IMG/VR virus record: IMGVR_UViG_3300000976_000011
Coordinates: 64,001-128,000 of that record
Reading direction: 5' to 3' (one strand)
Origin: a virus
DNA: 64,000 nucleotides
The translations under genes were made by a program, and so were the position numbers. Positions 102 through 30,469 of this stretch are shown piece by piece. The notes under the pieces were generated by a model. The model made no database searches, was not told the DNA's origin, and saw only the letters and a list, made by a program, of their open reading frames with translations. Each line of letters starts with the position of its first letter. Position 1 is the stretch's first letter.

Positions 102-165
102 TTTACAATATCAATTTAATGTTTTATAATAACTTATCAGTTAAATAATAGGTAATTAAATTATG
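102..165 (+). promoter_or_regulatory. Early sigma70-type promoter cassette with conserved ATCAGTTAAA leader and RBS
   Basis: TTTACA(102-107)-N17-TATAAT(125-130), then ATCAGTTAAATAATAGG and ATG at 163; same architecture at 8512, 11878, 24072, 29542. Confidence 0.8.
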
Positions 166-3582: not shown

Positions 3583-3768
3583 ATGAAAAAAGTAACAAAG
3601 AAAGAACGTAAACGTCAAGGTAGAAATGCCTTTGTTAGAAACATTTTAGCAAATGGCCGGAGTTTTACATTAGGAAACGAATTGTATGTTAGAGGATTAC
3701 CTCAAACTGGCTCTAAAGGATATATGGTAGAAATGCCTATTGTAAGAGTTTCTTATGGAACATCTTAA
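3583..3768 (+). CDS. Hypothetical basic protein
   Basis: ORF in operon orientation. Confidence 0.5.
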   Translation: MKKVTKKERKRQGRNAFVRNILANGRSFTLGNELYVRGLPQTGSKGYMVEMPIVRVSYGTS

Positions 3769-6976: not shown

Positions 6977-7935
6977 TAAATATAAAACTTCCAGTTGAAG
7001 GTAAATTTCTATTAACTGGTTCTAGAGCTTTAGGAACTAGAATTGCTAAAGATATAGATTTCATTTGTCACAGTTCCCAATTATTAGGTGATAACTGGTC
7101 TTTTTCTGATGGTATGTATGCTGCATCAAAAGATAATTATGATGTCATTTTAACAGATAATCATCCATCTTTAGAAAATTTAATTAAATTGTTTGGAAAG
7201 AAGAAAGCTTATAGATCTCCTGAAGTTTTATTTGTATTAAAAGCATCACATATTCATATACCAAGAAGAAATTGGTTTAATGATATTCAAGATTATACAA
7301 TTTTAAAAAATGAATTATATAGAGAATATTTTCATAAACAATCTGGCTTAATTCAAAATAGATTAGGAAGACTTATTATCGATTTCAAAAATGAATTAGA
7401 TAATTTGAATAATACTCATCAGATGAAACTAAATGTAACTAAAGATGAGTTCTTTAATGACGGTGTTGTTAAATTTATAGATCATGATATTTTGCATGAA
7501 ATGTTTGCTCATGAAGACGAACCGATATACAAAAAGACACAAACCGACCAAGCAGAAGTATTCTGTTCAAAAAGTTTGTGGGATCTATTAAGCTATCAAC
7601 AAAAGATCCACATGGTATTGGAGGAGACTTATGTGATCGCTGCTGAAAGATTCGTTATACCTAGAATGGTTTCTGGATATGCTGAAGTAAATTCTTTATA
7701 TGAAAGCGACCATATGCATAAAGGGGCTATCTATTTTAACGGAGATCCAGGTAATTTACATCTACAAACTATTCTTAATGCATTAAAGAAAGTGTGTACT
7801 TCTTTGTCTTCTGGTTATTTTCGTGAGTTCTCTATAAATAATTATTATGAGATATGTAATAATATAGACATGACTTATTTTAGAAGTGTTTGTTCTATAA
7901 TCCACAACGAAGGTAAAATATATGACTCGCTATAA
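6973..7935 (+). CDS. Phage nucleotidyltransferase-like protein (Pol-beta-type N-terminus)
   Basis: LTGSRAL..KDIDF (GS..DxD); C-terminal HDILHE and EETYVIAAER. Confidence 0.65.
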   Translation: MINIKLPVEGKFLLTGSRALGTRIAKDIDFICHSSQLLGDNWSFSDGMYAASKDNYDVILTDNHPSLENLIKLFGKKKAYRSPEVLFVLKASHIHIPRRNWFNDIQDYTILKNELYREYFHKQSGLIQNRLGRLIIDFKNELDNLNNTHQMKLNVTKDEFFNDGVVKFIDHDILHEMFAHEDEPIYKKTQTDQAEVFCSKSLWDLLSYQQKIHMVLEETYVIAAERFVIPRMVSGYAEVNSLYESDHMHKGAIYFNGDPGNLHLQTILNALKKVCTSLSSGYFREFSINNYYEICNNIDMTYFRSVCSIIHNEGKIYDSL

Positions 7936-8440: not shown

Positions 8441-8510
8441 GCCTAGTCCTTTGGAAGGAAGCGAGACTCCAAATCTTGCTAACGGGGTTCGATTCCCTGA
8501 CTGGGTGCCA
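8441..8510 (+). tRNA. tRNA-Trp(CCA)-like gene with shortened D-arm
   Basis: Acceptor GCCTAGT/ACTGGGT, anticodon arm CGAGA-CTCCAAA-TCTTG, T-arm CGGGG-TTCGATT-CCCTG, G73, CCA; only 70 nt. Confidence 0.75.
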
Positions 8511-8511
8511 T

Positions 8512-8574
8512 TTTACATTTAACTGATAATGTGATATAATGACTTATCAGTTAAATTAATAGGCTTTAATTATG
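8512..8574 (+). promoter_or_regulatory. Early promoter cassette with inverted repeat around the -10 box
   Basis: TTTACA(8512)-N17-TATAAT(8535); TTTAACTGATAA/TTATCAGTTAAA; AGG RBS, ATG 8572. Confidence 0.8.
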
Positions 8575-11877: not shown

Positions 11878-11944
11878 TTTACATTATCATTCTACTTGTT
11901 TATAATAGATATATCAGTTAAACAAGTAGGAATTTTATATTATG
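11878..11944 (+). promoter_or_regulatory. Early promoter cassette
   Basis: TTTACA(11878)-N17-TATAAT(11901), ATCAGTTAAA, TAGGA RBS; inverted repeat CTACTTGTTTA/TAAACAAGTAG. Confidence 0.8.
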
Positions 11945-23829: not shown

Positions 23830-23888
23830 TAATGTACATAAATGCCTATTTGGTATATAATTATATAAAATCAAATAGGTATTAAATT

Positions 23889-24071: not shown

Positions 24072-24138
24072 TTTACATTTTGTCTCAATAGTATATAATA
24101 GATTCATCAGTTAAACAAATAAAAACATTTATATTATG
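24072..24138 (+). promoter_or_regulatory. Early promoter cassette
   Basis: TTTACA(24072), TATAAT(24094), ATCAGTTAAA; lacks the AGG RBS. Confidence 0.75.
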
Positions 24139-24288
24139 AAATACGAAATTACATTTAAAAATAAATATGACGGATTATTAGAAAATATTATCGTTCGCGA
24201 TTATAATATGCCTACTAAAGTTTCAGATTTAAGTAATGGACCTTATATTATTATCAAAGTGGAAATTCATCTTCCTGAAGACGACTAA
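24136..24288 (+). CDS. Small hypothetical protein (50 aa, MKYEITFKNK...)
   Basis: ATG after cassette, TAA 24286-24288. Confidence 0.5.
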   Translation: MKYEITFKNKYDGLLENIIVRDYNMPTKVSDLSNGPYIIIKVEIHLPEDD

Positions 24289-24305: not shown

Positions 24306-24358
24306 GGCCAGGCGACTCATCTGGATTCCTATTACCATTTAACTGGAGTCGCCTGGCC
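24306..24358 (+). ncRNA. Candidate antisense sRNA: 13-bp GC clamp with 27-nt loop
   Basis: GGCCAGGCGACTC/GAGTCGCCTGGCC; loop TTCCTATTACCATTTAACTG complements the early leader CAGTTAAA..TAATAGG. Confidence 0.55.
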
Positions 24359-24371
24359 GCCTTAGGGTAAT

Positions 24372-24947
24372 ATGACTAAAATTTGTAGCATGACAGATAT
24401 AGAAGCTGTGGGCACCACTGGAGACACTGGTATCCTTTCAGTGTCTACCGTTATCTTTGACTTTGAAGATCCTCAAAAGAATTACATAGATGAATTTACA
24501 ACTTACTTAGATGTTAAAGATCAAATTGAAAGATTAGGTCGAACGTTTAGCAAAGATACTATGGACTGGTGGAAAAAACAAGACCCTGCAGTTTTTAAGT
24601 CTCAATTTGCTGGTAAAACTAAGATTGAAGATGGTCTTACTAGCTTATTAAGCTTCTTTGATAATCATGAATGTGATTGGCATTTTGCTAAAGGTGTGCA
24701 TTTTGATATGGCTATTTTAAAAGATGCTTGTCATTCACTAAATCTTAATGATCATCCATTTATTAAAGAGTTTTGGAAGTGGCAATGTTGTGCTACTATC
24801 GGCAGACAATATGAATATGAATTAGGTGAGAAATGGTTAGTTAATAATATGACTCGTAAATATAATAAAGAATTTGGTGCATCACATGATCCGTTAGTTG
24901 ATTGTAAAATTCAAATTGAAATCTTAAAAGACTTTACGGTACGATAA
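24372..24947 (+). CDS. dexA: DEDDh 3'-5' exonuclease, DexA-like
   Basis: TDIEAVG, TMDWW, KG.HFD.AIL, HDPLVDC. Confidence 0.8.
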   Translation: MTKICSMTDIEAVGTTGDTGILSVSTVIFDFEDPQKNYIDEFTTYLDVKDQIERLGRTFSKDTMDWWKKQDPAVFKSQFAGKTKIEDGLTSLLSFFDNHECDWHFAKGVHFDMAILKDACHSLNLNDHPFIKEFWKWQCCATIGRQYEYELGEKWLVNNMTRKYNKEFGASHDPLVDCKIQIEILKDFTVR

Positions 24948-29541: not shown

Positions 29542-29609
29542 TTCACTTTTCGCTATAAATTGATTATAATATTCATATTAGTTAAACAAAATAGGAAACT
29601 TATATTATG
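29542..29609 (+). promoter_or_regulatory. Early promoter cassette
   Basis: TTCACT-N17-TATAAT, AGTTAAA, ATAGGAA RBS. Confidence 0.75.
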
Positions 29610-30023
29610 ACTATCAATAAAAATACAGTAATTGAAAATCGAGACAAAATTAATGAGTATTTAAAAGCATTAGGTGATCTTTTAGATATGGATTTCCATG
29701 CTGGAAATTGTAGCTATGACGGCGATAAAGCTACTTATAAATTAGAAATGCGAGCCCGTCGAACTGATGGCAAATCAACTCAAGAAGTAGAATTTGAGAA
29801 AAATAAGTTGAGACATTTTGGCTTATTTAATGTTGAATTTGGTGATACTTTCAAAGATCGAAGAGGCGAAACTTTTTCTGTAGCTGGATGTGCAGCTAGA
29901 AGAAACAAATATTCTTTATATGGTAAATCTAATAATGGTAAAACTTATAAATTTGCTATTGAAGATGTAACATTTGACCGAGTTGGTTCTGATGCATATA
30001 TGGATGCAGATTTAGCTCAATAA
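29607..30023 (+). CDS. Hypothetical early protein
   Basis: 138-aa ORF after cassette. Confidence 0.75.
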   Translation: MTINKNTVIENRDKINEYLKALGDLLDMDFHAGNCSYDGDKATYKLEMRARRTDGKSTQEVEFEKNKLRHFGLFNVEFGDTFKDRRGETFSVAGCAARRNKYSLYGKSNNGKTYKFAIEDVTFDRVGSDAYMDADLAQ

Positions 30024-30040
30024 AATAGGAAACTTATATT

Positions 30041-30469
30041 ATGAAAGTAGCATATAATGGTTGTTATGGCGGATTTAGTCTTTCGCCTTTCGCGGAAACT
30101 ATTTACCAAGAACTTAAAGGTTTGACTTTAACTTGGTATGAGGGAATAGGTAGATATCCATACACTTCATATAAAAAGATAGACGATATTGAGTCTTATA
30201 AAAACTCTTCTATATTTGGTTTGTCTCCATCAAAGGTTGATTTAGGTGAAAATCCTAAAGAGATTCCAAATGAGCACTATTATTATAATGAGTGGGCAGA
30301 TGAAGATCGCTCAGATCCTGACTTAATAGCGGTGATTGAGAAGCTAGGTGAAAAGGCTAATGGTATGTGTGCAAATTTGTGTATTGAAGAGATTCCTGAT
30401 GGAGCAGAATATGAAATTGATGAGTATGACGGCTTCGAATCAGTAGTTCCGCCGCGCTGGCGGTGGTAA
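30041..30469 (+). CDS. Conserved phage hypothetical protein
   Basis: N.CYGGFSLS, RSDPDLIAVIE.LG, IDEYDGFESV. Confidence 0.75.
   Translation: MKVAYNGCYGGFSLSPFAETIYQELKGLTLTWYEGIGRYPYTSYKKIDDIESYKNSSIFGLSPSKVDLGENPKEIPNEHYYYNEWADEDRSDPDLIAVIEKLGEKANGMCANLCIEEIPDGAEYEIDEYDGFESVVPPRWRW

Follow-up and report, generated by a model that had tools for sequence, protein, structure and literature searches.

A GC-clamped hairpin at positions 24306-24358 of the plus strand, whose large loop is antisense to the leader shared by early mRNAs of the same phage, is probably a regulator of early genes. We base this assignment on the sequence of the window, meaning here the whole 64,000-nucleotide stretch of DNA that was analyzed, and on a comparison with related phages. 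The window covers bases 64001-128000 of a 141,675-bp virus record that has direct terminal repeats and 30.7% GC. The genome is that of a T4-like myovirus, encoding UvsY, RegA, a gp23-type capsid and gp19-type tail genes, with early promoters of the T4 type (GTTTAC(A/T)-N17-TATAAT) and late motifs (TATAAATA), and the sole sequencing run that contains DNA of this phage is an algae-associated metagenome, the probable source; no RNA run is listed as containing it. T4-type phages are the textbook case of protein-based post-transcriptional control, exerted by RegA, RegB and gp32; a search for the RegB family gave no match in this phage, and the control genomes were equally silent. No close relatives were found among 50,697 phage records by blastn and tblastn, the best matches being 35% identical for the ligase and 30% for the exonuclease. 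Three kinds of IMG/VR scan, by exonuclease, by exact hairpin pattern and by Metallophos profile, returned distant matches only, a scan of metagenome contigs gave partial matches of at most 42%, and a search with the lipoprotein ORF recovered the query alone.

Re-reading of the sequence bears out the hairpin as it had first been described, with a perfect 13-bp stem, a 27-nt loop and, in what follows the stem (GCCTTAGGG / GCCUUAGGGUAAUAUG / GCCTTAGGGTAATATG), no U-tract. It consists of the following parts:

24306-24318, plus strand: 5' arm of the GC clamp, GGCCAGGCGACTC, the perfect 13-bp complement of 24346-24358, with pair probabilities of about 1 (0.94-1.0 for every pair of the stem)
24319-24345, plus strand: open loop of 27 nt with the anti-leader sequence, unpaired in the centroid structure, at an opening cost of 1.9 kcal/mol
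24346-24358, plus strand: 3' arm of the GC clamp, pairing with 24306-24318

G or C occupies 10 of the 13 stem positions (77% GC), and the predicted RNA fold has an energy of -31.3 kcal/mol with a z-score of -4.1 to -4.4, none of 200 shuffles being as stable. In a scan of the whole 141.7-kb genome this was the only perfect stem of at least 10 bp with at least 70% GC, and the other large-loop hairpins of -13 kcal/mol or lower comprised two weaker elements (genome 25410-25441 and 98335-98380) and, beyond the window, a palindrome of 34 bp. That palindrome, at G000:C1:56776-56861 and 7.2 kb before the start of the window, has perfectly matching arms of 34 bp around an 18-nt spacer and a folding energy of about -46 kcal/mol; it is intergenic, lies near a tRNA cluster and is by far the longest palindrome of the genome. 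It might serve as a target of RNase III, as an origin or in recombination. The hairpin itself matched no model in Rfam 15 at the gathering score, including those for the phage C4 antisense RNA, tRNA and tmRNA, and relaxing the threshold to E<=10 returned only noise (E 0.9-8, from snoRNA and lncRNA models), while ARAGORN called no tRNA or tmRNA there.

The leaders to which the loop is complementary belong to an early cassette of the form TTTAC(A/T)-N17-TATAAT-N5-6-ATCAGTTAAA(C/T)..ATAGG(A/T)A..ATG, which occurs in about 12 copies genome-wide and in which the spacer between ATCAGTTAAA(C/T) and ATAGG(A/T)A varies from 1 to 4 nt. Judging from its spacing to the -10 element, the leader box would start at about +1. 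All four leaders cited in the initial annotation (138, 8548, 11915 and 29580) are members of this family, and the cassette that would transcribe the hairpin (24072) has, as stated there, retained the box ATCAGTTAAA and lost the Shine-Dalgarno block in its leader at 24108. Equally, the reverse complement of 24326-24345 is CAGTTAAATGGTAATAGGAA, the sequence that had been claimed. The reverse complement of the loop reads CAGTTAAA-TGGTA-ATAGGAAT, that is, both invariant leader blocks in the same order, with a 5-nt bulge (TGGTA) at the position of the variable leader spacer. The blocks and the leaders of the window are:

24325-24332, plus strand: anti-RBS block ATTCCTAT, complement of the leader block ATAGGAAT (Shine-Dalgarno region)
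24338-24345, plus strand: anti-5'-end block TTTAACTG, complement of the CAGTTAAA box, predicted nt 3-10 of the early mRNAs
136-165, plus strand: candidate target leader, loop duplex -14.7 kcal/mol
8546-8574, plus strand: candidate target leader, loop duplex -14.8 kcal/mol
11913-11944, plus strand: candidate target leader, loop duplex -16.7 kcal/mol
29577-29609, plus strand: candidate target leader, variant ATTAGTTAAAC..AATAGGAAAC, whose RBS module recurs at 30023
24106-24138, plus strand: the hairpin's own leader, with ATCAGTTAAA kept and AAAAAC in place of AGGAAT, loop duplex only -6.5 kcal/mol

The block ATTCCTAT is an exact complement, over 7-8 nt, of the leaders at 11913 and 29577, of those at genome positions 134118 and 40360, and of others. 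Outside the promoter cassettes, the complement of the loop is the sole occurrence of CAGTTAAA..ATAGG, and the pattern CAGTTAAA-N1-6-ATAGG, expected 0.01 times per window, was observed three times, at two of the leaders and, read on the minus strand, in the loop. Complementarity is confined to the blocks that are invariant among the leaders. With seven full leaders the loop is predicted to form duplexes of -14.2 to -16.7 kcal/mol (mean -15.3), compared with -6.4 +/- 0.8 kcal/mol for dinucleotide-shuffled loops, and only 2 of 1500 random genomic 27-mers paired with the leaders as well as the loop does. When the loop was slid along both strands of the genome, however, more than 25 unrelated 40-nt windows reached -17.8 kcal/mol or better, so that pairing energy alone is not exceptional in a genome this rich in AU. 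The expectation that the pairing would exceed that of controls held against shuffled loops, none of 400 being as good as the real one, but not in the sense that the leaders are the best sites of the genome by energy. What stands out, rather than the energy, is that the loop matches a repeated and functionally placed motif block by block in the same order.

Other features of the leaders and of their promoters can be described here. An identical 21-nt RBS module, AAATAGGAAACTTATATTATG, occurs at window positions 29589-29609 and 30023-30043 as a direct repeat bracketing one ORF. At 8518-8557, the promoter at 8512 has in its spacer TTTAACTGATAA, which repeats the start of the promoter's own leader, TTATCAGTTAAA, in inverted orientation over 12 bp; in transcripts reading through from the upstream tRNA-Trp, the +1 box could therefore be taken up in a hairpin that surrounds the -10 element. 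The tRNA-Trp in question (8441-8510) is a 70-nt call by ARAGORN with the anticodon at position 29, on which the Rfam tRNA model is silent at the gathering score, and it may be atypical or degenerate. A further full promoter with the +1 box lies 2.6 kb before the start of the window (G000:C1:61408-61500), where no Shine-Dalgarno sequence or ATG follows and the downstream stretch is GC-richer and structured-looking (..CCCTTTGTTCCTGACATCGGTCTTCTAAACCGATCC..); this cassette may drive a tRNA or another non-coding RNA. A scan of IMG/VR with the leader pattern gave mostly chance matches and one contig with true cassettes, L053 (positions 7110-7745 of IMGVR_UViG_3300024495_000817), a viral contig of 38% GC in which two early cassettes stand in tandem, both with this +1 box (ATCAGTTAAAC, following TATAAT-N6), and which has no hairpin. 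Conservation of the +1 box may therefore extend well beyond the lineage of this phage, and the box may itself contribute to initiation or to recognition of the 5' end.

The hairpin occupies the 83-nt gap between two genes of one early transcription unit, which is laid out as follows:

24072-24099, plus strand: early promoter TTTACA-N16-TATAAT that would transcribe the hairpin, 11 of 12 consensus matches
24136-24288, plus strand: upstream cistron, a 50-aa ORFan with an in-frame codon score of 0.31
24359-24371, plus strand: GCC-UUA-GGG mini-helix and exonuclease RBS (AGGG) abutting the clamp, a predicted 3-bp helix stacked on the stem
24372-24947, plus strand: downstream cistron, an Rv2179c-like 3'-5' exonuclease (DexA-like; Pfam PF16473, E 1.5e-20) with homologues 56-63% identical

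A second early promoter, at 23833, also reads into the hairpin; promoter scans found no late promoter and no minus-strand promoter that does so. There is no promoter in the interval between the hairpin and the exonuclease, where the stem is 13 nt from the next ATG, and expression of the exonuclease, which has no promoter of its own, therefore requires read-through of the hairpin. No terminator follows it, a terminator scan at the hairpin yielding only a spurious 5-bp sub-stem, and the element is thus embedded in a polycistronic early mRNA. The 50-aa ORFan has no homologue among the relatives described below. Real genes score 0.39 +/- 0.14 by the same codon measure, and reading out of frame gives -1.0; on the strength of this gene-like codon usage we reject the view that the transcript from the 24072 promoter is a non-coding RNA only. 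The GCC(C) directly after the clamp is kept in the window (24359-24368) and in one relative, L005 (297-309; GCCC-UUUU-GAGG), and it is predicted to pair with the downstream Shine-Dalgarno sequence (GGG / GAGG) in a mini-helix of 3-4 bp that would stack on the long stem.

Relatives were reached through the neighboring exonuclease and amidase genes, which are 56-68% identical among the four phages where measured. The relatives, three independent metagenomic phages (L005, L034/L038 and L037), have a common gene order of uvsY, ligase, small ORFs, exonuclease and amidase, and each contains exactly one hairpin of the same design, with a perfect, GC-rich stem of 10-13 bp and a loop of 21-34 nt:

L005, 250-296: stem GCATCCGAGTTCC of 13 bp, loop of 21 nt, followed by GCCC..GAGG..ATG
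L034 (identical copy in L038), 3605-3655: stem GGGGCTTAGG of 10 bp, loop of 31 nt
L037, 5070-5129: stem AGAGTTAGCGGGC of 13 bp, loop of 34 nt, with a T-run after the stem

All four hairpins are on the coding (transcribed) strand in an intercistronic gap, 7-29 nt past a stop codon and 13-19 nt ahead of the next ATG, and one or two ORFs downstream of a leader-bearing early promoter; in L034/L038 and L037 the gene directly downstream is a Metallophos gene. Their stems are perfect and mutually unrelated, with no alignable stem sequence, and over the four hairpins 49 of 49 stem pairs are Watson-Crick and none is G-U. The L037 stem is followed by TTTTATTTT, which is terminator-like, whereas the other three copies lack a U-tract. 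Alignment of the four elements with MAFFT recovered short flanks common to the window and L005 (AAAC.(G/A)ATA before the stem and GCC after it) and nothing further. No such hairpin was seen in 10 kb of L003/L004, whose exonuclease is 56% identical. Unrelated low-GC phage contigs contained two similar hairpins in 180 kb, and none with an anti-leader loop was found in 733 kb. A 92-kb Logan contig (ERR4592243) encodes close homologues and is a possible fifth relative.

The loops of these hairpins change together with the leaders of the phages that carry them. The leaders differ, having CAGTTAAA in the window phage, ACAAGTTA in L034 and L037, and ATATAGGTA / AGGTAAAC in L005. In L034/L038 the leader ACAAGTTA(G/A)ACAGTTAATTATTAGGG is matched by a loop complement of ACAAGTTAAC-AATTATGAGG, and in L037 the leader ACAAGTTA..AGAGGAGTTTT by ACAAGTTAAT-AGAGGA-TTTT. 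The CAGTTAAA box is absent both from the two leaders of L005 and from its loop, and what these leaders and the loop complement have in common is AGGTAAAC and ATATAGGTA; the second of the leaders, located 3 kb away in a different transcription unit, is as good a match, including an exact block of 9 nt. In a local-alignment test with dinucleotide shuffles, the number of shuffles per 1000 that scored as high as the real pair of loop and own-phage leader was 2 for the window, 31 for L005, 6 for L034 and 7 for L037, and most cross-phage pairs were not significant. The test covers four phages, with one or two known leaders per relative, that of L037 having been located by its motif and not by the promoter scan, and energy-based z-scores for the same pairing are weak (-1.5 for L034 and -2.2 for L037). 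Co-variation of loop and leader in related phages, a check that the initial annotation had put forward, is thus positive in three relatives, which supports RNA-RNA pairing and lends weight to the core of that annotation, namely that the loop is the antisense determinant for the common early leader. An accessible seed that matches its targets beyond chance, together with seed-target co-variation, is what the element has in common with the functional class of base-pairing antisense or small-RNA regulators.

Our leading proposal, which we put forward tentatively, is that the hairpin is a structured RNA within early polycistronic mRNA whose loop would pair with early leaders to lower their translation, alter their stability, or both. 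Specifically, the very stable GC-rich clamp would hold open the large AU-rich loop, and the loop would pair with the 5'-terminal box and the Shine-Dalgarno region so that both the ribosome-binding site and the 5' end are covered, thereby reducing translation and/or changing the stability of the early mRNA. The targets would be the mRNAs of 8-12 cassettes in trans and possibly the hairpin's own transcript in cis. Since the mRNA carries the target box at its predicted 5' end, there would be no topological obstacle to pairing with a closed loop; in the IS10 RNA-IN/RNA-OUT system a target at the 5' end likewise avoids this obstacle. The clamp would also shield the fragment from exonucleases, leading to its accumulation, and because it should outlive the surrounding mRNA, the element could build up and provide a delayed brake on early genes, one that would act beside the RegA protein that this phage also encodes. 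Promoters of one class drive both the hairpin and its targets, and a simple stoichiometric shut-off hence needs this accumulation as an added assumption. In this scheme, what we infer is the pairing in vivo, the direction of the effect, the cis or trans mode and the processing to a small RNA. In its fullest form the proposal describes a putative single-copy, operon-embedded riboregulator of an uncultured marine T4-like lineage, with a clamp that outlasts the mRNA and a loop that co-evolves with the leader and silences a regulon; this complete version we consider possible and rather doubtful.

The alternative that competes best, which we nevertheless judge unlikely, is that the loop is a relic at the level of DNA. 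An inverted fragment of an early leader would have been left behind by cassette shuffling (PeSL-like recombination at leader repeats), its complementarity to the leaders would be functionless, and the GC arms would form a generic intercistronic hairpin, for instance one that protects an mRNA 3' end, marks a site of processing or pausing, or acts as a terminator with some leakage. Leaders do serve as recombination joints in this genome, as the direct repeat of the RBS module that brackets an ORF (29589 and 30023) indicates, a leader-bearing promoter always precedes the hairpin at a short distance, leaving the ORF flanked by a leader and an inverted leader, the strictly Watson-Crick stems are what a DNA palindrome gives, and the terminator-like sequence after the L037 copy fits the same origin. 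A neutral relic should decay, however, and instead the loop still fits the phage's own, diverged leader in each of four diverged phages, among which the stems have been fully replaced. Moreover, the TGGTA spacer of the loop fits no extant leader variant, the similarity ends precisely at the two functional blocks, and there is no known mechanism that would repeatedly place an inverted leader in a GC clamp. On sequence grounds we favor an RNA function for the hairpin, given a clamp that is maintained despite full sequence turnover, an accessible loop, and complementarity that is limited to the invariant blocks and begins at the 5' end of the target.

If the element does act as RNA, it could do so only within its own transcript, the loop pairing with the leader at the 5' end and closing the mRNA, which would limit translation of the promoter-proximal gene or shield the 5' end from RNases with no regulon-wide role. 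The leader that fits the loop best in L005, L034/L038 and L037, or the only fitting one known, belongs to the unit from which the hairpin is transcribed and lies 250-1000 nt upstream, and as the nearest match it would allow action in cis; in the window, too, a cassette promoter is 200 nt upstream, though there are only about 12 in 141 kb. Set against this, the window hairpin's own leader has no Shine-Dalgarno block and reaches only the -6.5 kcal/mol listed above, compared with -14 to -17 kcal/mol for seven distant leaders, and the equal match of the L005 leader 3 kb away belongs to a different unit. Exclusive cis action seems to us quite improbable as an account of the hairpin.

Very unlikely, in our view, is a role of the element as double-stranded DNA, in which an inverted +1/leader motif is bound by a protein that also recognizes early promoters, and the palindrome extrudes as a cruciform. 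The stems are perfect palindromes, and a second inverted copy of the box is found inside the promoter at 8518-8557 (TTTAACTGATAA / TTATCAGTTAAA); yet the stem sequences differ wholly between phages, which argues against sequence-specific binding of the arms, no candidate protein is known, and the orientation is always antisense in the mRNA, although an inverted repeat yields that automatically. We give hardly any credence to a pseudoknot or anti-SD switch in which UAUUACC of the loop pairs with GGUAAUA at 24366-24372 and masks the exonuclease RBS: the 7-bp complementarity exists in the window, and the GCC/GGG mini-helix abuts the stem there and in L005, but shuffled loops match the cis duplex in 93/400 and 91/400 cases, and the pairing is not conserved, with only 5 bp in L005 and downstream genes in L034 and L037 that have no Shine-Dalgarno sequence to mask. 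The other reading offered at the outset, an inverted cassette remnant with an 11-aa ORF on the minus strand, is rejected, as no -10 or -35 element lies upstream on that strand and the mini-ORF is not conserved across the four phages (11 aa, 8 aa, about 20 aa and none).

Regarding known systems, the candidate antisense hairpin most closely resembles in function the c4 RNA of P1/P7, the CI RNA of P4 and RNA-OUT of IS10, by analogy and with no membership in sequence or structure. The c4 and CI RNAs are operon-embedded, processed antisense immunity RNAs in which short complementary blocks in loops pair with ribosome-binding or leader regions, and whose specificity between related phages shifts by matched changes in loop and target. 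Like them, the hairpin is phage-encoded and transcribed within an operon of the kind it would control. Unlike them, it has no similarity in sequence or structure and no Rfam match even at E<=10, and whereas c4 and CI regulate lysogeny and immunity through one or two targets, here the phage is a virulent T4-like one with about 8-12 candidate targets. As in RNA-OUT, a stable stem offers a loop for the extreme 5' end and RBS of the target, complementarity in this case beginning at predicted nt 3 of the leader, but RNA-OUT is cis-encoded and fully complementary, while the hairpin is encoded elsewhere and would address a family of mRNAs through two 8-nt blocks.

Within the T4-like phages, the repeated early promoter cassettes beside small ORFs, the plastic regions and the intermodule stem-loops recall the PeSL cassettes (PMC4122927). 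The PeSL stem-loops are short, of terminator type, directly followed by a promoter and recur many times (PMC4122927), whereas the hairpin is single-copy in 141.7 kb, has a 27-nt loop that is antisense to the leader, and is not followed by an early promoter; the 2014 PeSL paper mentions neither antisense nor the leader (PMC4122927). The proposed mechanism also resembles the hairpins of T4 genes e, soc, 49 and I-TevI, which mask the Shine-Dalgarno sequence at the RNA level in T4-type early transcripts (PMC3014915), except that these act locally with the Shine-Dalgarno sequence as a stem arm, and here an anti-Shine-Dalgarno sequence is in the loop and its best matches are distant leaders. A separate 11-bp hairpin in L037 (4017-4065) has the Shine-Dalgarno sequence AACAGAGGAGT in its 3' arm and a promoter -10 element and +1 box in its loop; by analogy with T4 genes e and soc, read-through transcripts would hide its Shine-Dalgarno sequence, which would be accessible in transcripts initiated within the loop. 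Finally, a GC-rich, perfect stem in an intergenic gap is also what Rho-independent terminators and REP-type stabilizer hairpins have, but the loops of the element, 27 nt in the window and 21-34 nt in the relatives, compare with 3-8 nt in those, three of the four copies, the window's among them, have no U-tract, and the element is single-copy, which sets it apart from an intrinsic terminator.

With its comparative support, the hairpin is a plausible operon-embedded antisense control element. To our knowledge, antisense control of this kind has not yet been described in T4-like phages, and, if the proposal is true in its fullest form, the T4 superfamily would have its first trans-acting regulatory RNA. 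If the element is a DNA relic instead, it would illustrate how inverted remnants of leaders end up within stable palindromes when cassettes are shuffled. An RNA function, if real, would explain why the leader is invariant across shuffled cassettes, adding a selective reason for that invariance besides recombination, and would tie the long-noted conservation of the early promoter/leader cassette (PeSL) to a function at the RNA level. A GC clamp that presents an anti-leader loop would be a simple design, one for which other AT-rich phage genomes can be screened.
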